64,000 nucleotides of DNA from Escherichia coli (lineage in GTDB: Bacteria; Pseudomonadota; Gammaproteobacteria; Enterobacterales; Enterobacteriaceae), in NCBI RefSeq assembly GCF_044324785.1, contig NZ_CP172127.1; one strand, given 5' to 3'. Position numbers and translations under genes: made by a program. Shown here piece after piece: positions 50,973 to 60,290 of this stretch; positions within the stretch are counted from its first letter, which is position 1; each line of letters begins with the position of its first letter. The notes beneath the pieces are model-generated. The model was not told where the DNA came from. It did no database searches and worked only from the letters and a program-made list of their open reading frames with translations.

Positions 50973-51723
50973 GTTTGAAGATATTCGCGGCGTCGCTTTT
51001 GATCTCGATGGTACGCTGGTAGACAGTGCTCCTGGCTTGGCTACCGCAGTAGATATGGCGCTGTATGCGCTGGAGTTGCCCGTCGCAGGTGAAGAACGCG
51101 TTATAACCTGGATTGGTAACGGCGCAGATGTTCTGATGGAGCGCGCATTGACCTGGGCGCGTCAGGAACGTGCGACTCTGCGTAAAACAATGGGTAAACC
51201 GCCCGTTGATGACGACATTCCGGCAGAAGAACAAGTACGTATTCTGCGTAAACTGTTCGATCGCTACTATGGCGAGGTTGCCGAAGAGGGGACGTTTTTG
51301 TTCCCGCACGTTGCCGATACGCTGGGCGCATTGCAGGCTAAAGGCCTGCCGTTGGGCCTGGTCACCAACAAACCGACGCCGTTCGTCGCGCCGCTGCTGG
51401 AAGCCTTAGATATCGCTAAATACTTCAGCGTGGTGATTGGTGGTGATGATGTGCAAAACAAAAAACCGCATCCGGACCCGCTGTTACTGGTGGCTGAGCG
51501 GATGGGAATTGCTCCACAACAGATGCTGTTTGTTGGCGACTCACGCAATGATATTCAGGCAGCAAAAGCGGCAGGTTGCCCATCAGTTGGCTTAACCTAC
51601 GGATATAACTACGGCGAGGCTATCGATCTCAGCCAGCCTGATGTAATTTATCAGTCTATAAATGACCTTCTGCCCGCATTAGGGCTTCCGCATAGCGAAA
51701 ATCAGGAATCGAAAAATGACTAA
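50965..51723 (+). CDS. gph: phosphoglycolate phosphatase
   Basis: 252-aa HAD-family ORF (FDLDGTL motif); overlaps rpe by 8 nt. Confidence 0.95.
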
Positions 51724-52720
51724 GCCCATCGTTTTTAGTGGCGCACAGCCCTCAGGTGAATTGACCATTGGTAACTACATGGGTGCGCTGCGTCAGTGGG
51801 TAAACATGCAGGATGACTACCATTGCATTTACTGTATCGTTGACCAACACGCGATCACCGTGCGCCAGGATGCACAGAAGCTGCGTAAAGCGACGCTGGA
51901 TACGCTGGCCTTGTATCTGGCTTGTGGTATCGATCCTGAGAAAAGCACCATTTTTGTTCAGTCCCACGTGCCGGAACATGCGCAGTTAGGCTGGGCACTG
52001 AACTGCTATACCTACTTCGGCGAACTGAGCCGCATGACGCAGTTTAAAGATAAATCTGCGCGTTATGCCGAGAACATCAATGCTGGTCTGTTTGACTATC
52101 CGGTGCTGATGGCAGCGGACATCCTGCTGTATCAAACTAATCTGGTACCGGTGGGTGAAGACCAGAAACAGCACCTGGAACTGAGCCGCGATATCGCCCA
52201 GCGTTTCAACGCGCTGTATGGCGAGATCTTTAAAGTGCCGGAGCCGTTTATTCCGAAATCTGGCGCGCGCGTAATGTCGCTGCTGGAGCCGACCAAAAAG
52301 ATGTCCAAGTCTGACGATAACCGCAATAACGTTATCGGCCTGCTGGAAGATCCGAAATCGGTAGTGAAGAAAATCAAACGTGCGGTCACTGACTCCGACG
52401 AGCCGCCGGTAGTTCGCTACGATGTGCAGAACAAAGCGGGCGTTTCCAACCTGCTGGATATCCTTTCTGCGGTAACGGGCCAGAGCATCCCGGAACTGGA
52501 AAAACAGTTCGAAGGCAAGATGTATGGTCATCTGAAAGGTGAAGTGGCTGATGCCGTTTCCGGTATGCTGACTGAATTGCAGGAACGCTATCACCGTTTC
52601 CGCAACGATGAAGCCTTCCTGCAACAGGTGATGAAAGATGGCGCGGAAAAAGCCAGCGCGCACGCTTCCCGTACGCTAAAAGCGGTGTACGAAGCGATTG
52701 GTTTTGTGGCGAAGCCGTAA
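51716..52720 (+). CDS. trpS: tryptophan--tRNA ligase
   Basis: 334-aa class I aaRS with HIGH-like (TIGNYMGA) and KMSKS motifs; overlaps gph by 8 nt. Confidence 0.96.
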
Positions 52721-52736
52721 TTTAACATTAATGCCA

Positions 52737-52762
52737 AAAACCGGGGAAACCCGGTTTTTTTT
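52737..52762 (+). terminator. rho-independent terminator of the dam-rpe-gph-trpS transcript
   Basis: Stem AAAACCGGG/CCCGGTTTT with a GAAA loop followed by a T-run; 17 nt after the trpS stop. Confidence 0.8.
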
Positions 52763-52830
52763 ATCCTCATTTGCAATAATCCGAAAAAATGTGAAGCGCC
52801 TCGCCGTTTCCACATCTCGCAGTTGCCACT

Positions 52831-52852
52831 TATCTTCATTTTTATGAAGATA
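52831..52852. promoter_or_regulatory. perfect palindrome TATCTTCAT-TTTT-ATGAAGATA about 30 bp upstream of yhfZ (candidate operator)
   Basis: 9-bp perfect inverted repeat arms with a 4-bp spacer read directly; AT-rich, so more likely a protein-binding site than an RNA hairpin. Confidence 0.45.
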
Positions 52853-52880
52853 TAAATATTCACTTTATTGAAAATTTACT

Positions 52881-53786
52881 ATGCGTCGAACGTTTATCAA
52901 AAAAGAAGGCGTCGTCATCACGACACTGGCCCGTTATTTGTTGGGTGAAAAGTGCGGTAATCGACTGAAAACCATAGATGAGCTGGCAACTGAATGCCGT
53001 TCATCCGTTGGCCTGACGCAGGCCGCGTTGAAAACGCTGGAATCAAGCGGAGCGATACGGATTGAACGCCGTGGGCGCAATGGCAGTTATCTGGTGGAAA
53101 TGGATAACAAAGCATTGCTGAGTCATGTGGATATCAACAATGTGGTGTGCGCGATGCCCTTGCCCTATACCCGTTTGTACGAAGGCCTGGCGAGCGGATT
53201 GAAAGCTCAGTTTGATGGCATTCCTTTTTACTATGCGCATATGCGCGGCGCGGATATTCGCGTGGAGTGTTTACTTAACGGCGTGTATGACATGGCGGTT
53301 GTTTCCCGACTGGCGGCGGAAAGTTATCTCACGCAAAAAGGCTTATGCCTCGCGCTGGAGTTGGGGCCGCACACCTACGTTGGCGAGCACCAGTTGATTT
53401 GCCGTAAAGGCGAGTCCGCAAACGTGAAGCGTGTGGGGCTGGATAACCGTTCGGCGGATCAGAAAATCATGACCGATGTTTTTTTTGGCGATACGGATGT
53501 GGAACGAGTCGATCTCTCCTATCACGAGAGTTTACAACGCATTGTTAAAGGCGATGTTGATGCGGTTATCTGGAACGTGGTGGCGGAAAACGAACTGACC
53601 ATGCTGGGATTAGAAGCGACGCCGCTCACAGATGATCCGCGATTTTTACAGGCCACCGAAGCCGTGGTCCTGACGCGAGTCGATGATTACCCAATGCAAC
53701 AACTGCTGCGTGCAGTTGTTGATAAACATGCCCTGCTTGCCCATCAACAACGCGTGGTGAGTGGGGAACAGGAACCCAGTTATTAA
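52881..53786 (+). CDS. yhfZ: putative DNA-binding transcriptional regulator YhfZ (N-terminal winged HTH)
   Basis: 301-aa ORF MRRTFIKKEGVVITTLARYLLGEK...; matches my memory of YhfZ. Confidence 0.85.
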   Translation: MRRTFIKKEGVVITTLARYLLGEKCGNRLKTIDELATECRSSVGLTQAALKTLESSGAIRIERRGRNGSYLVEMDNKALLSHVDINNVVCAMPLPYTRLYEGLASGLKAQFDGIPFYYAHMRGADIRVECLLNGVYDMAVVSRLAAESYLTQKGLCLALELGPHTYVGEHQLICRKGESANVKRVGLDNRSADQKIMTDVFFGDTDVERVDLSYHESLQRIVKGDVDAVIWNVVAENELTMLGLEATPLTDDPRFLQATEAVVLTRVDDYPMQQLLRAVVDKHALLAHQQRVVSGEQEPSY

Positions 53787-53802
53787 ACGAAAGGCATCTG
53801 AT

Positions 53803-54165
53803 ATGGAAACCAGACTCAACCTGCTTTGCGATGCAGGCGTTATTGATAAGGACATCTGCAAAGGCATGATGCAGGTCGTCAAGGTACTGGAAACAGAGTG
53901 CCATCTGCCGGTGCGCAGTGAGCAAGGAACGATGGCAATGACACATATGGCGAGTGCACTGATGCGCAGTCGCCGTGGTGAAGAAATAGAGCCGCTGGAC
54001 GCCGAATTGCTGGCAGAACTGGCGCAATCCAGCCACTGGCAAGCCGTTGTGCAATTGCATCAGGTGTTGTTGAAGGAATTTACACTGGAAGTTAACCCGT
54101 GTGAAGAAGGCTATTTGCTGGCCAACCTTTATGGATTATGGATGGCTGCTAACGAAGAGGTTTGA
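53803..54165 (+). CDS. yhfY: PRD-domain protein YhfY
   Basis: Start set at METRLNLLCDAGVIDKD (120 aa); the ORF track extends 14 codons upstream into yhfZ. Confidence 0.85.
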   Translation: METRLNLLCDAGVIDKDICKGMMQVVKVLETECHLPVRSEQGTMAMTHMASALMRSRRGEEIEPLDAELLAELAQSSHWQAVVQLHQVLLKEFTLEVNPCEEGYLLANLYGLWMAANEEV

Positions 54166-54195
54166 AGCTCCCGACAAATCCACGTCGCACAACCT

Positions 54196-54219
54196 AAATA
54201 TTCAAAAAAATGAATATTT
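54196..54219. promoter_or_regulatory. perfect palindrome AAATATTCA-AAAAAA-TGAATATTT about 30 bp upstream of yhfX (candidate operator or RNA element)
   Basis: 9-bp perfect inverted repeat arms with a 6-bp A spacer read directly, in the yhfY-yhfX intergenic region. Confidence 0.45.
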
Positions 54220-54248
54220 AATTCAAGGAACAGAAACGAGGCAACAAG

Positions 54249-55412
54249 ATGTTTGTAGAAGCATTGAAACGCCAGAACCCGGCGCTAATTTCCGCCGCAC
54301 TAAGCTTGTGGCAAAAGGGCAAGATCGCCCCGGACAGCTGGGTGATCGACGTGGATCAGATACTGGAAAACGGTAAGCGGCTGATTGAGACGGCGCGGCT
54401 TTACGGCATTGAACTGTATCTGATGACCAAGCAGTTTGGTCGTAATCCGTGGCTGGCGGAAAAACTGCTGCCATTAGGCTACAGCGGCATTGTGGCGGTG
54501 GATTACAAAGAGGCGCGAGTCATGCGCCGCGCCGGTTTGCCGGTGGCGCATCAGGGGCATCTGGTACAAATCCCTTGTCATCAGGTTGCTGACGCCGTTG
54601 CACAGGGCACCGACGTCATCACCGTGTTTACTCTCGACAAAGCGCGGGAAGTTTCTGCGGCAGCGGTGAAGGCCGGACGTGTGCAGTCTGTGCTGCTCAA
54701 AGTTTATAGCGACGATGATTTTCTTTATCCGGGGCAGGAGAGCGGTTTTGTACAGCATTCGCTGCACGAGGTGGTTGCTGAAATTAAGAAACTGCCGGGG
54801 TTGCATTTAGCTGGACTAACCCATTTCCCTTGCCTGCTTTGGGATGAGGCTGCCGGGAAAGTTTTGCCGACACCGAATCTTCACACGCTGATACAGGCAC
54901 GGGATCAACTGGCGAAATCTGGTATTGCGATTGAGCAACTGAACGCACCTTCTGCGACCAGCTGCACTTCGCTGCCATTGCTGGCGGAATACGGTGTGAC
55001 TCATGCCGAACCCGGTCATGCGCTGACGGGCACTATTCCGGCAAACCAGCAGGGCGATCAGCCTGAACGTATCGCGATGCTCTGGTTAAGTGAAATCTCC
55101 CATCATTTCCGTGGCGACAGCTACTGCTACGGCGGCGGTTACTACCGTCGTGGTCATGCGCAACATGCGCTGGTGTTTACGCCAGAAAATCAAAAGATTA
55201 CTGAAACCAATCTCAAAGCCGTGGATGACAGCAGTATCGACTACACCCTGCCGCTGGCAGGTGAGTTTCCGGTAAGCAGTGCAGTAGTGCTCTGTTTTCG
55301 CACGCAGATTTTTGTCACCCGTAGCGATGTGGTGTTGCTGTCCGGTATTCACCGTGGCGAACCAGAAATCGTCGGTCGTTATGACAGTCTTGGAAACTCT
55401 CTGGGGGCGTAA
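54249..55412 (+). CDS. yhfX: putative PLP-dependent alanine-racemase-fold protein YhfX
   Basis: 387-aa [28 protein letters not shown]...; matches my memory of YhfX. Confidence 0.88.
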
Positions 55413-56638
55413 TGGCGCGATTTGTGGTGTTAGTGATTGATAGCTTTGGCGTAGGGGCAATGAAAGATGTCACGTTGGTGCGTCCGCAGGATGCCGGGGC
55501 GAATACCTGTGGTCACATCCTGAGCCAGTTGCCGCATTTGCAGCTACCAGCGCTGGAGAAGCTGGGGCTAATCAACGCATTGGGTTATGCACCAGGTGAT
55601 ATGCAGCCGTCAGACTCCGCAACTTGGGGTGTGGCAGAGCTGCAACATGAAGGTGGCGATACCTTTATGGGGCATCAGGAAATTTTAGGCACGCGCCCGT
55701 TACCGCCGCTGCGGATGCCCTTTCGTGATGTGATTGACCGTGTTGAGCAGGCATTAGTTTCCGCTGGCTGGCTGGTTGAGCGTCGTGGCGATGATCTGCA
55801 ATTTCTGTGGGTCAATCAGGCGGTTGCGATTGGCGATAATCTCGAGGCGGATTTAGGCCAGGTCTATAACATCACCGCCAATCTCTCTGTGATCTCTTTT
55901 GACGACGCAATCAAAATTGGTCGTATTGTGCGTGAGCAGGTACAGGTCGGTCGGGTCATTACATTTGGTGGCCTGTTAACCGACAGTCAACGCATTCTCG
56001 ATGCCGCAGAAAGCAAAGAAGGGCGCTTTATTGGTATCAATGCGCCGCGTTCTGGCGCTTATGACAACGGCTTCCAGGTCGTGCATATGGGCTACGGTGT
56101 CGATGAGAAAGTGCAGGTGCCGCAAAAACTGTATGAAGCGGGCGTGCCAACCGTGCTGGTGGGTAAGGTGGCGGATATTGTCAGCAATCCTTATGGCGTG
56201 AGCTGGCAAAACCTGGTGGATAGCCAACGGATTATGGATATCACTCTCAACGAATTTAACACCCATCCGACGGCGTTTATTTGTACCAATATCCAGGAAA
56301 CCGACCTCGCTGGTCATGCAGAAGACGTCGCACGTTATGCCGAACGTTTGCAGGTCGTTGACCGTAACCTTGCCCGGCTTATTGAGGCGATGCAGCCAGA
56401 TGATTGCCTGGTCGTGATGGCGGATCACGGTAACGATCCGACCATTGGTCACAGCCACCATACCCGCGAAGTGGTGCCAGTGCTGGTTTATCAGCAAGGG
56501 ATGGTCGCTACGCAGCTCGGTGTGCGCACCACGCTTTCTGATGTGGGGGCTACCGTGTGTGAATTTTTCCGTGCGCCACCGCCACAAAATGGTCGCTCTT
56601 TTCTTTCCTCCCTCCGGTTTGCAGGAGACACCCTATGA
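55412..56638 (+). CDS. yhfW: putative phosphopentomutase-like metalloenzyme YhfW
   Basis: 408-aa ORF; its ATG overlaps the yhfX stop by 1 nt; matches my memory of YhfW. Confidence 0.88.
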
Positions 56639-57513
56639 GTATTGATCCGACGGGTTACACCCTCGCCCATGAGCATCTGCATATTGATCTCTCCGGCTTT
56701 AAAAACAACGTGGACTGCCGCCTTGATCAGTATGCGTTCATTTGCCAGGAGATGAACGACCTGATGGCCCAGGGCGTGCGTAATGTGATTGAGATGACCA
56801 ACCGTTACATGGGGCGAAATGCGCAATTTATGCTCGATGTGATGCACGAAACTGGCATCAACGTGGTGGCCTGTACCGGTTATTACCAGGATGCGTTTTT
56901 CCCGCAACATGTGGCGACCCGCAGCGTACAGGAACTGGCGCAGGAGATGGTCGATGAAATTGATCAGGGTATCGATGGCACGGAACTGAAAGCCGGGATC
57001 ATCGCGGAGATCGGCTCCAGCGAAGGGAAGATTACGCCGCTGGAAGAGAAGGTGTTTATTGCCGCCGCGCTGGCACATAACCAGACCGGACGCCCGATCT
57101 CCACGCATACGTCGTTCAGCACGATGGGGCTGGAACAACTGGCTCTGTTGCAAGCCCACGGAGTTAATCTTTCGCGCGTCACCGTTGGTCACTGCGATCT
57201 GAAAGACAACCTCGACAACATTTTGAAGATGATCGATCTCGGCGCGTATGTGCAGTTCGACACCATCGGCAAGAACAGTTACTACCCGGACGAAAGGCGC
57301 ATTGCGATGCTCCACGCGCTACGTGACCGTGGTTTGCTGAACCGCGTCATGCTGTCGATGGATATTACGCGCCGCTCCCATTTAAAAGCCAACGGTGGTT
57401 ATGGCTATGACTATTTATTGACCACCTTTATTCCGCAATTGCGCCAGTCAGGATTCAGTCAGGCCGATGTGGATGTGATGTTACGTGAAACTCCCTCTCA
57501 ATTTTTCCAATAA
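56635..57513 (+). CDS. php: phosphotriesterase homology protein
   Basis: 292-aa [25 protein letters not shown] (amidohydrolase HxH metal motif); ATGA overlap with yhfW. Confidence 0.9.
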
Positions 57514-57523
57514 GGACAGACTC

Positions 57524-57877
57524 ATGAAAAAGATTGGTGTTGCAGGCTTACAGCGTGAGCAGATTAAAAAAACCATTGAAGCGACGGCTCCTGGCTGTTT
57601 TGAAGTTTTCATTCACAACGACATGGAAGCGGCAATGAAAGTCAAATCCGGGCAACTGGATTACTACATCGGCGCGTGTAATACCGGTGCGGGCGCGGCA
57701 TTGTCGATTGCCATCGCGGTGATTGGCTATAACAAAAGTTGCACCATTGCCAAACCAGGCATTAAAGCGAAAGACGAACATATCGCCAAAATGATCGCCG
57801 AAGGGAAAGTGGCGTTTGGGCTTTCCGTTGAGCACGTCGAACACGCGATTCCGATGCTGATTAACCATCTGAAATAA
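57524..57877 (+). CDS. yhfU: uncharacterised protein YhfU
   Basis: Start set at MKKIGVAGLQREQIKK (117 aa); the ORF track extends 13 codons upstream. Confidence 0.85.
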   Translation: MKKIGVAGLQREQIKKTIEATAPGCFEVFIHNDMEAAMKVKSGQLDYYIGACNTGAGAALSIAIAVIGYNKSCTIAKPGIKAKDEHIAKMIAEGKVAFGLSVEHVEHAIPMLINHLK

Positions 57878-57888
57878 AAGGCACGACT

Positions 57889-59193
57889 ATGGATCTGTAT
57901 ATTCAGATTATCGTGGTGGCGTGCCTGACGGGTATGACATCGCTTCTGGCGCATCGCTCGGCGGCCGTTTTTCATGACGGTATCCGCCCGATCCTGCCGC
58001 AACTGATTGAAGGCTATATGAACCGTCGCGAGGCGGGGAGTATCGCTTTTGGTCTGAGCATTGGTTTTGTGGCTTCGGTGGGGATCTCTTTTACCCTGAA
58101 AACCGGACTGCTCAACGCATGGTTACTCTTTCTTCCTACCGATATCCTCGGCGTACTGGCGATAAACAGCCTGATGGCGTTTGGTCTTGGCGCTATCTGG
58201 GGCGTGTTGATCCTTACTTGCCTGTTACCGGTAAACCAGCTGCTGACCGCGCTACCGGTGGATGTATTAGGTAGCCTGGGGGAATTAAGCTCGCCGGTGG
58301 TTTCAGCTTTTGCACTGTTCCCGTTGGTGGCGATTTTCTACCAGTTTGGCTGGAAGCAAAGTCTGATCGCCGCCGTGGTGGTACTGATGACCCGTGTGGT
58401 GGTAGTGCGCTATTTCCCGCATCTCAATCCGGAATCCATCGAAATCTTTATTGGCATGGTGATGCTGCTGGGGATCGCGATAACTCACGACCTGCGTCAT
58501 CGTGATGAAAATGATATTGATGCCAGCGGGCTTTCGGTGTTTGAAGAACGCACGTCGCGGATTATCAAAAACTTACCGTATATCGCTATTGTCGGGGCGC
58601 TGATTGCCGCCGTTGCCAGCATGAAGATTTTTGCTGGCAGTGAAGTGTCGATCTTCACACTGGAGAAAGCATATTCCGCAGGCGTAACGCCGGAACAATC
58701 ACAAACGCTGATTAACCAGGCAGCTCTGGCGGAATTTATGCGCGGGCTGGGTTTTGTACCGTTGATTGCCACCACCGCGTTAGCCACTGGTGTGTATGCA
58801 GTTGCGGGCTTTACCTTTGTTTATGCGGTGGGCTATCTCTCGCCGAATCCGATGGTTGCAGCGGTATTAGGCGCAGTGGTTATTTCGGCGGAAGTCCTGC
58901 TGCTTCGTTCGATCGGCAAATGGCTGGGGCGCTATCCGTCGGTGCGTAATGCGTCAGATAACATCCGTAACGCCATGAATATGCTGATGGAAGTGGCGTT
59001 GCTGGTCGGTTCGATTTTCGCAGCAATTAAAATGGCGGGTTATACCGGATTTTCTATCGCAGTTGCCATTTACTTCCTCAACGAATCCCTGGGCCGTCCG
59101 GTACAGAAAATGGCGGCACCGGTCGTGGCAGTAATGATCACCGGTATTCTGCTGAATGTTCTTTACTGGTTTGGCCTGTTCGTTCCGGCTTAA
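57889..59193 (+). CDS. yhfT: putative inner membrane transporter YhfT
   Basis: 434-aa polytopic membrane ORF. Confidence 0.88.
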   Translation: MDLYIQIIVVACLTGMTSLLAHRSAAVFHDGIRPILPQLIEGYMNRREAGSIAFGLSIGFVASVGISFTLKTGLLNAWLLFLPTDILGVLAINSLMAFGLGAIWGVLILTCLLPVNQLLTALPVDVLGSLGELSSPVVSAFALFPLVAIFYQFGWKQSLIAAVVVLMTRVVVVRYFPHLNPESIEIFIGMVMLLGIAITHDLRHRDENDIDASGLSVFEERTSRIIKNLPYIAIVGALIAAVASMKIFAGSEVSIFTLEKAYSAGVTPEQSQTLINQAALAEFMRGLGFVPLIATTALATGVYAVAGFTFVYAVGYLSPNPMVAAVLGAVVISAEVLLLRSIGKWLGRYPSVRNASDNIRNAMNMLMEVALLVGSIFAAIKMAGYTGFSIAVAIYFLNESLGRPVQKMAAPVVAVMITGILLNVLYWFGLFVPA

Positions 59194-59204
59194 GGAAGGC
59201 ACCT

Positions 59205-60290
59205 ATGAAGACGTATCCTTTGCAAAGCCTGACGCTTATTGAGGCGCAGCAAAAGCAGTTTGCGCTGGTGGACACGATTTGCCGCCATTTTCCCGGCAGC
59301 GAGTTTCTTACCCGCGGGGATTTGGGCTTAACGCCGGGGCTGAATCAACCGCGCATTACCCAGCGAGTGGAACAGGTGCTGGCTGATGCATTTCACGCAC
59401 AGGCTGCGGCGCTGGTACAGGGCGCGGGTACTGGCGCGATCCGTGCGGCGTTGGCGGCTTTGCTCATACCGGGGCAGCGTCTTCTGGTGCATGACGCGCC
59501 TGTTTACCCGACGACTCAGGTCATTATTGAGCAGATGGGGCTGACGCTTATTACTGCTAATTTCAATGACCTGTCGGCACTTAAGCAGGTCGTCGAAGAG
59601 CAACAACCGGATGCGGCTCTGGTGCAGCATACGCGCCAGCAGCCGCAGGACGGGTACATTCTGGCAGATGTGCTGGCAACGTTGCGCTCGGCTGGCGTTC
59701 CTGCATTAACCGATGACAACTATGCGGTGATGAAGGTAGCGCGAATTGGCTGCGAATGCGGGGCAAATGTCTCGACTTTTTCCTGCTTCAAGCTGTTTGG
59801 GCCGGAGGGTGTTGGCGCGGTGGTAGGCGATGCCGATGTTATTAGTCGGATTCGCGCCACGCTCTACTCCGGCGGCAGCCAGATTCAGGGCGCTCAGGCG
59901 TTGGAAGTCTTGCGTGGGCTGGTGTTTGCGCCAGTGATGCACGCGGTGCAGGCGGGGGTATCTGAACGGTTGCTGGCCTTGCTCAACGGTGGTGCAGTTC
60001 CGGAAGTGAAAAGCGCCGTCATTGCCAATGCACAGTCGAAGGTGTTGATTGTCGAGTTTCATCAGCCGATTGCCGCCAGAGTGCTGGAAGAGGCGCAAAA
60101 GCGCGGTGCCTTGCCTTACCCGGTTGGTGCAGAGTCGAAATATGAAGTTCCGCCACTTTTTTATCGACTTTCCGGAACGTTTCGCCAGGCGAATCCGCAA
60201 CTCGAACATTACGCGATTCGTATTAACCCAAATCGCAGCGGTGAAGAGACGGTGCTGCGGATTTTGCGTGAGAGTATTGCGAGTATTTAA
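59205..60290 (+). CDS. yhfS: putative PLP-dependent aminotransferase-fold protein YhfS
   Basis: 361-aa ORF MKTYPLQSLTLIEAQQKQFALVDTI...; matches my memory of YhfS. Confidence 0.88.
   Translation: MKTYPLQSLTLIEAQQKQFALVDTICRHFPGSEFLTRGDLGLTPGLNQPRITQRVEQVLADAFHAQAAALVQGAGTGAIRAALAALLIPGQRLLVHDAPVYPTTQVIIEQMGLTLITANFNDLSALKQVVEEQQPDAALVQHTRQQPQDGYILADVLATLRSAGVPALTDDNYAVMKVARIGCECGANVSTFSCFKLFGPEGVGAVVGDADVISRIRATLYSGGSQIQGAQALEVLRGLVFAPVMHAVQAGVSERLLALLNGGAVPEVKSAVIANAQSKVLIVEFHQPIAARVLEEAQKRGALPYPVGAESKYEVPPLFYRLSGTFRQANPQLEHYAIRINPNRSGEETVLRILRESIASI

Follow-up and report, generated by a model that had tools for sequence, protein, structure and literature searches.

A conserved palindrome at the yhfZ promoter is a predicted operator of the YhfZ regulator in Escherichia coli

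We analyzed a palindrome located directly upstream of yhfZ in a 64,000-nucleotide (64-kb) stretch of Escherichia coli DNA, referred to here as the window. This palindrome, O1, carries a motif that is present in three copies, is deeply conserved, keeps a fixed geometry and co-varies with the recognition helix of YhfZ, the regulator encoded next to it. We consider it probable that O1 is the promoter-proximal operator of YhfZ and that, together with two further copies of the motif (O2 and O3), it serves YhfZ in repressing its own cluster, with the assistance of CRP. Binding of YhfZ to these sites, the sign of its action, the point where transcription starts, the part played by CRP and the existence of an inducer are inferences from the sequence comparisons.

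The yhfZ-yhfS cluster is present in ~94% of complete E. coli genomes and includes Php, the long-orphan phosphotriesterase homology protein. Our literature search found nothing on YhfZ binding sites, its regulon, or the regulation, function or inducer of the cluster, and yhfZ is absent from the supplements of an in vitro run-off study, a Shigella transcription-start map and a ChIP-exo study of uncharacterised regulators. The predicted operator motif and promoter model would offer a testable entry into this widespread orphan operon and would extend the regulatory network of E. coli by one regulator-site pair.

Three copies of a palindromic motif in the yhf cluster

The features discussed in the text are the following, with positions given in the window.

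51716-52720, + strand: trpS coding sequence (open reading frame list; RefSeq annotation of matching E. coli records).
52736-52768, + strand: trpS intrinsic terminator, AAAAACCGGG-GAAA-CCCGGTTTTT plus a T-run, with its stem at 52736-52759 (terminator scan, inverted repeat).
52787-52808, no strand assigned: CRP-like site AAATGTGAAGCGCCTCGCCGTT, core TGTGA-N6-TCGCC, centre at 52797.5 (consensus match only).
52823-52828, + strand: putative -35 hexamer TTGCCA (TTG invariant in the alignment; geometry).
52831-52852, no strand assigned: O1, TATCTTCAT-TTTT-ATGAAGATA (whole: TATCTTCATTTTTATGAAGATA), conserved core TTCA-N6-TGAA at 52835-52848 (sequence, conservation, weight-matrix score of 31.9 bits).
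52846-52851, + strand: putative weak -10 hexamer GAAGAT, at a 17-bp spacer from TTGCCA and inside the right arm of O1 (geometry only).
52855-52876, no strand assigned: O2, AATATTCA-CTTTAT-TGAAAATT (whole: AATATTCACTTTATTGAAAATT), core at 52859-52872 (pattern match with 0 mismatches).
52881-53786, + strand: yhfZ, encoding a regulator of 301 aa whose N-terminal winged HTH (PF14502) is followed by a ligand-binding-type YhfZ_C domain (PF14503).
53761-54165, + strand: yhfY, a small, weakly PRD-like protein, always beside yhfZ (synteny).
54195-54220, no strand assigned: O3, TAAATATTCA-AAAAAA-TGAATATTTA, perfect 10-bp arms, between yhfY and yhfX, 28 nt before the yhfX ATG.
54249-60290, + strand: yhfX-yhfW-php-yhfU-yhfT-yhfS, the presumed regulated genes (open reading frames, Pfam, synteny in 80 loci).

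An earlier, sequence-only reading of this DNA had described a 22-bp perfect palindrome immediately upstream of yhfZ and just after the trpS terminator. We found the palindrome to be exact at 52831-52852, with fully complementary 9-bp arms and a 4-nt centre, and its dyad stops at its ends, where 52830 and 52853 are both T and do not extend the pairing. The placement was also correct, as O1 starts 62 nt past the trpS terminator and ends 28 nt 5' of the yhfZ ATG (52881). Because of this terminator, the yhfZ promoter would be isolated from trpS transcription.

When arms had to be 9 bp or longer and spacers 0-10, we counted 34 perfect palindromes in the window, compared with 3.5 +/- 2.4 in dinucleotide shuffles. 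Since GC-rich terminators and REP elements make up most of these 34, a single such palindrome would be unremarkable alone; O1 stands out as non-random because its motif is conserved and repeated. The 9-4-9 symmetry that had been described holds in this strain but not as the conserved unit, which is instead 8-6-8, TAT-n-TTCA-N6-TGAA-n-ATA, and the perfection of O1 in this strain is partly incidental. The ninth arm pair differs between strains, with TATCTTCA-AATTCC-TGAAGATA at this site in K-12 and Nissle and TATCTTCA-TTTTAA-TGAAGATA in further E. coli strains. Within E. coli, up to 4/6 positions of the O1 centre differ, with the outer eight bases of each arm remaining constant.

The palindrome had been presented as a single element. 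O1 itself is real, but it is one of three sites carrying the motif, and O2 and O3 had been missed. The pattern WTNTTCA-N6-TGAANAW, allowing 0 mismatches, has exactly three matches in the 64 kb, all of them within the yhf cluster. A symmetrised weight matrix made from orthologous sites was scanned over the window and scored O1 at 31.9, O2 at 28.3 and O3 at 31.9 bits, compared with 8.7 for the next site in the 64 kb and a shuffle maximum of 9.7; no site above noise was found elsewhere in the window, including the frl genes. O2 is an imperfect copy of the motif, located 24 bp downstream of O1 (centre to centre) and ending 4 nt before the yhfZ ATG; in 49 loci it is found at about -15 relative to yhfZ, and it is conserved in most Enterobacteriaceae. 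O3 is near-invariant across Enterobacterales, including its A6 spacer, even though its flanks diverge.

Other sequences resembling the motif were seen close to these sites. A 12-nt direct repeat, TTATCCTCATTT / TTATCTTCATTT, is present at 52761-52772 and 52830-52841. Its upstream copy (52761-52772), just past the trpS terminator, resembles a lone left half-site and could be due to chance. In Citrobacter, Trabulsiella and Buttiauxella the 3' end of yhfY contains an extra TTCA-N6-TGAA, located ~110 bp before O3 (L010 at 1393, L011 at 5211, L020 at 5206, L031 at 5218 and others); it is missing in E. coli, which has CGAA in place of TGAA. This extra match could be either an auxiliary site or a coding coincidence.

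Conservation of the motif and its covariation with YhfZ

The YhfZ alignment was scanned against one genome per species, giving 80 yhfZ loci with a total of 686 kb. These loci come from Escherichia, Citrobacter, Klebsiella, Pluralibacter, Trabulsiella, Cedecea, Buttiauxella, Lelliottia and Superficieibacter, as well as from Chimaeribacter, Atlantibacter, Serratia, Photorhabdus, Xenorhabdus, Providencia, Vibrio and Photobacterium. The core TTCA-N6-TGAA occurs 174 times in the 80 loci, where ~10 occurrences are expected (17-fold enrichment), and 155 of the 174 matches lie upstream of yhfZ (107) or yhfX (48), regardless of the flanking genes. The cluster is syntenic over the 80 loci and has trpS as its upstream neighbour solely in Enterobacteriaceae proper; in Serratia, Xenorhabdus, Providencia, Vibrio and others the motif is kept despite the different neighbours. 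The motif accompanies yhfZ, across genera and phyla, independently of trpS. As a separate observation, in Photorhabdus O2 is the sole intact site and O1 has degenerated.

When orthologous sites are aligned, TAT.TTCA and TGAA.ATA are at least 90% conserved and the centre is variable. The conserved blocks in 29 aligned promoter regions are the CRP-like GTGA plus TC, an invariant TTG and the O1 half-sites, with the O2 half-sites forming a further block in most genera. The 12 Escherichia alleles compared differ in the spacer of the CRP-like site, at the 3' half of the putative -35 hexamer, within the operator centres and along the linkers; their half-sites are unchanged, except that E. albertii has two substitutions in the right O1 arm.

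YhfZ is the sole DNA-binding protein encoded in the conserved cluster. Pfam assigns HTH_41 to residues 24-71 (PF14502, E = 6e-20) and YhfZ_C to residues 75-301, the C-terminal domain corresponds to PDB 2OZZ (residues 74-301), and the protein matches the NCBIfam family NF041241, named 'GntR family'. An AlphaFold2 model of YhfZ, obtained from 13 orthologues, has a winged-helix topology at the N-terminus, at low confidence (pLDDT 61), and its fold-search matches were used for domain type only. The best match of the C-terminal half of this model is 2OZZ; this half also aligns with periplasmic-binding-protein and LysR-effector-type structures.

A search of 1.8 billion representative proteins detected 662 members of the YhfZ family (E <= 0.001). 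We examined 11 distinct loci, whose homologues share 32-48% identity and whose organisms span 27-67% GC. In the first divergent locus (L087) the palindrome is AAAATACAAAATTATGTACATT, and in its protein S42-V43-G44 of E. coli is replaced by ARG; these residues open the third helix of the model, which is the recognition helix in such a topology. The rule 'V with TTCA, R with TACA' was stated after this locus and then checked on six further ones. ARG (L090) and GRG (L094) were accompanied by TACA-N6-TGTA, SRG (L095) by TACG-N6-CGTA, and SVG (L091, L092 and L096) by TTCA-N6-TGAA. Overall, SVG is associated with TTCA-N6-TGAA in 6/6 loci and xRG (ARG, GRG, SRG) with TAC(A/G)-N6-(T/C)GTA in 4/4, six of the ten having been checked after the rule was stated; as this sample of ten loci is small, and each helix class is possibly a single clade, this covariation may reflect few independent events. 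At the one locus examined with a GNG-class homologue, neither palindrome was present upstream.

The predicted operator clearly tracks the lineage of the regulator across very different genomes, which makes binding by another protein hard to square with the data. The proposal that the palindrome is an autoregulatory operator for YhfZ is well supported by these computational results, the motif following yhfZ and co-varying with its recognition helix. The association would represent a first recognition code for the unstudied HTH_41/YhfZ family, in which a V or an R at the helix start corresponds to a T or an A, respectively, at position 2 of the half-site.

Protein site, promoter and proposed repression

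The sequence-only reading had favoured a binding site for a dimeric regulator over an RNA hairpin, and our comparisons agree with it: the half-sites are conserved as sequence and not by covariation, O2 cannot fold, and the motif travels with yhfZ. We compared 29 distinct orthologous O1 sites with column shuffles. Paired cells amounted to 85.8%, equal to the shuffled value, and no compensatory covariation was seen in these sites (0.035 versus 0.039 in the shuffles). The innermost pair of O1 (9-14, T9-A14) is unpaired in 18/29 of the sites and pair 4-19 in 13/29. As RNA, O1 would fold with an energy of -8.2 to -9 kcal/mol and a z of about -4 to -5, and trpS precedes it on the same strand, which would suit a leader stem-loop, a secondary terminator of trpS read-through or an mRNA stabiliser. 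We nevertheless regard such a hairpin, in RNA or DNA, as highly improbable. O2 shares the motif and is equally conserved, yet it forms no hairpin (-0.5 kcal/mol); the O1 stem is AT-rich and no U-run follows it; and a strong terminator already exists 62 nt upstream. In addition, the Rfam search of the O1 region returned no family match, the terminator scan, which looks for a GC-rich stem with a U-run, does not call O1, and O1 would be left untranscribed by the promoter proposed below.

Because compensatory changes, a foldable O2 and Rfam or terminator matches are all lacking, selection acts on the sequence of two symmetric half-sites, which is the signature of a dimeric DNA-binding protein. O1 also shows several features of an operator: a dyad, conserved half-sites with a free centre, and recurrence upstream of yhfZ and yhfX with rarity elsewhere, both in the window and in the 80 loci.

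The sequence-only reading would have been refuted if the palindrome lay within a transcribed leader with no promoter nearby. As far as the sequence tells, O1 instead has a conserved TTG(nnA), the putative -35 element, on one side and a -10-like hexamer on the other, and the conserved CRP-like site lies upstream of it. The TTG begins 12 nt before the TTCA of O1 in 57 loci, and the hexamer reads TTGACC in Serratia and TTGCGA, TTGCAA or TTGTTA elsewhere. The candidate -10 element, GAAGAT, matches TATAAT at 3/6 positions, and two of its bases, A2 and T6, are invariant or nearly so across the 29 aligned promoters. TATAAA (52851-56) is a better-looking hexamer, but it lies 22 bp from the -35 element; given this competing hexamer, the promoter assignment could be wrong. 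The standard sigma-70 scan of the + strand called no promoter at O1, so our promoter model is built on conservation and geometry, and the same type of scan gave no recognisable promoter at O3.

The CRP-like site matches TGTGA/TCACA at 8/10 core positions and AAATGTGA-N6-TCACATTT at 13/16 specified positions, a degree of resemblance consistent with a CRP site. Its GTGA is invariant and the TC of its right half at least 90% conserved in 29 genera-spanning sequences, and the site shows 1-3 mismatches in 78/78 loci scored. The distance from its centre to that of O1 is exactly 44 bp in 57 loci, from Escherichia to Xenorhabdus. If TTGCCA and GAAGAT are the -35 and -10 elements, the CRP-like site would be centred at about -61.5, a class I position. 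In the distant loci a single site is present immediately downstream of good sigma-70 promoters, such as TTGCAT-17-TATAAT (L094) and TTGACA-17-TATAAC (L085), and this location just past near-consensus promoters is the geometry of a repressor.

Our model suggests that a YhfZ dimer, combining a winged helix with a periplasmic-binding-protein-like sensor, would read TAT-n-TTCA and TGAA-n-ATA, whose centres are 10 bp apart. Transcription of yhfZ would start near 52858, from TTGCCA (52823-28) and GAAGAT (52846-51). With this start, O1 would span -27 to -6, filling the spacer and the -10 region, and O2 would span about -3 to +19, over the start itself. Dimers bound to O1 and O2 would exclude RNA polymerase, repressing yhfZ and the genes behind it. 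O3 may extend this control to yhfX-yhfS, by acting as a second operator, by forming a roadblock or by taking part in looping; alternatively, it could be part of a promoter that depends on an activator. With the CRP-like site at about -61.5, expression would in addition depend on cAMP-CRP, as occurs in catabolic operons, and the placement of O1, O2 and this site thus fits a geometry of steric repression combined with cAMP-CRP activation. A ligand, possibly together with the PRD-like YhfY, would then release YhfZ.

Alternative readings, related systems and variation among strains

YhfZ could bind these sites and act as an activator or a dual regulator, for instance by activating at O3 or by being switched by its ligand as LysR-type proteins are. 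The weak proposed yhfZ -10, the absence of a recognisable -35/-10 near O3 and a fold search placing the YhfZ architecture closest to full-length OxyR, BenM and CbnR, although with low TM-scores, would all suit this possibility. We consider it unlikely, as O1 lies between the -35 and -10 elements and O2 over the proposed start, a classical repressor position, and as the single sites of the distant loci lie just past strong consensus promoters that need no activator. Recognition of the sites by a regulator encoded outside the cluster, either a global one or FrlR, whose gene adjoins the cluster in E. coli, appears very unlikely. A 5-4-5 reading of the palindrome, TTCAT-N4-ATGAA, superficially resembles the FNR/CRP-family site TTGAT-N4-ATCAA, but the inner flank of the core varies (K-12 has TTCAA-ATTC-CTGAA) and the G of TTGAT is a C here, while the half-sites of the ArgR box have the opposite order (TGAAT-N4-ATTCA). 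Moreover, the motif is found with yhfZ in Vibrio and also in metagenomic lineages of low and high GC that lack frl genes, shifts with the YhfZ recognition helix, and has no above-noise counterpart elsewhere in the 64-kb window, the frl genes included.

We give almost no credence to a functionless, chance AT-rich palindrome. About 3.5 perfect palindromes with 9-bp arms would be expected per window, but chance would not account for a site that keeps its position in genera as far apart as Escherichia and Vibrio, for the three copies within the cluster or for a 17-fold enrichment in 80 loci.

Known motifs were also compared with O1 and rejected. An FNR/CRP-family 5-4-5 site does not fit, with position 3 an invariant C and the inner base varying among TTCAT, TTCAA, TTCAG and TTCAC. 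For FNR, ArgR, IHF, the HipB operator (TATCC-N8-GGATA) and the LysR box, either the spacing or key bases misfit.

The organization proposed here resembles that of autoregulated local repressors with a CRP site, such as the GntR-family proteins FadR, PdhR, ExuR and UxuR, or LacI with its O1-O2-O3. The shared features are half-sites in inverted orientation roughly one helical turn from each other, a position overlapping the core promoter of the regulator's own operon, auxiliary operators and an upstream CRP-like site; the GntR-family members also combine an N-terminal winged HTH with a C-terminal effector domain. GT-Nx-AC operators are typical of the FadR and HutC subfamilies. The YhfZ motif, TTCA-N6-TGAA, differs from these GT...AC-type operators of GntR subfamilies, and a GntR-type operator was rejected on the basis of this core and of the xRG variant, TACA-N6-TGTA, which has AC...GT, the opposite order. 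The proteins differ as well: GntR regulators have PF00392 as their DNA-binding domain with FCD, UTRA, MocR or YtrA effector types, whereas YhfZ, by prediction, has HTH_41 and the PBP-like YhfZ_C. PF00392 gave no match to E. coli YhfZ even at E <= 10, which does not support membership of the GntR family; among the homologues, a 'weak' or 'faint' PF00392 match was seen in two distant ones only. Well supported computationally, the picture is that of a classical operator design for an unstudied regulator, solid and unsurprising; local repression with assistance from CRP is a textbook arrangement for catabolic operons, and the design is therefore not conceptually new.

LysR-type regulators (OxyR, BenM, CbnR) share with YhfZ a winged HTH followed by a two-lobed, PBP-like sensor, and the low-confidence YhfZ model retrieves full-length members of this type, with matches extending over both domains. 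In contrast to them, YhfZ has no PF00126 or PF03466 match and seemingly lacks the long linker helix. A LysR box is T-N11-A, whereas O1 has symmetric T-N10-A and T-N12-A pairs and does not show the T-N11-A spacing; likewise, the LysR recognition site is typically at -65, and O1 is inside the proposed promoter.

The cluster also shares elements with the PRD-controlled PTS regulators (LicT/BglG, MtlR, LevR): a PRD-type protein, YhfY, is invariably beside the regulator, and the core contains YhfT and the small soluble YhfU. The match of E. coli YhfY to the Pfam PRD family has E = 0.0099 and that to TIGR03582 reaches 28 bits, both below the cut-offs, while clear PRD proteins occupy the yhfY position in distant loci. 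The genes from yhfX to yhfS encode PLP enzymes, a metalloenzyme, a phosphotriesterase-family protein, a DUF2620 protein and the YhfT membrane protein. Across phyla, the core consists of yhfZ, a small PRD-domain protein, DUF2620, YhfT and a phosphotriesterase-family protein (L086, L087, L091, L094 and L095), and YhfU shows a faint RpiB/LacAB-like similarity (yhfU and yhfT are at 57485-59193). The PRD protein and the YhfU/YhfT core hint at a PTS-like sensory link. Unlike the PRD/PTS regulators, the PRD here is a separate small polypeptide, in E. coli below the Pfam and TIGRFAM cut-offs, and no RNA antiterminator target or EII domain was identified at the yhf cluster. The connection of the cluster with PRD/PTS regulators is entirely speculative.

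A tentative extension of the repressor model, which we find rather doubtful, is that YhfZ and YhfY form a split PTS-style switch, in which operator occupancy would be set by the ligand and YhfY, and the state of YhfY by the YhfU/YhfT transport pair. If true, this would represent a previously unrecognised type of PRD-linked DNA-binding repressor, in a module of yhfZ, PRD, DUF2620, YhfT and PTE extending from Enterobacterales to low-GC and high-GC lineages.

Finally, we compared the locus among E. coli strains. A 401-bp query across O1 gave trpS-yhfZ matches in 5,425/5,426 complete E. coli genomes, the best being strain PCN033. The 58 bp at 52823-52880 show ~86% identity between the haplotype of the window and the K-12-type haplotype, and 2,753 genomes fall in the 80-90% band. 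This segment is far more divergent than the flanking trpS, and every difference lies outside the half-sites. A weak BLAST match of 38 bp upstream of exuR in strain TUM9757 was set aside as a chance partial match.

The yhfZ promoter region is missing from 343/5,426 complete E. coli genomes. In O157:H7 TW14359 (L003, 1622-1752), frlR directly follows trpS, and the yhfZ-yhfS cluster and the palindromes are gone. An island-boundary or integration site was considered for O1 and rejected, since the endpoint of the O157 deletion lies upstream, in the BIME region, and O1 is kept where the flanks differ. K-12 and many other E. coli carry a BIME/REP-type insertion of ~110-130 bp between the trpS stop and the shared terminator; at the same place, the strain of the window (52721-52735) and Nissle 1917 have the arrangement without this insertion.
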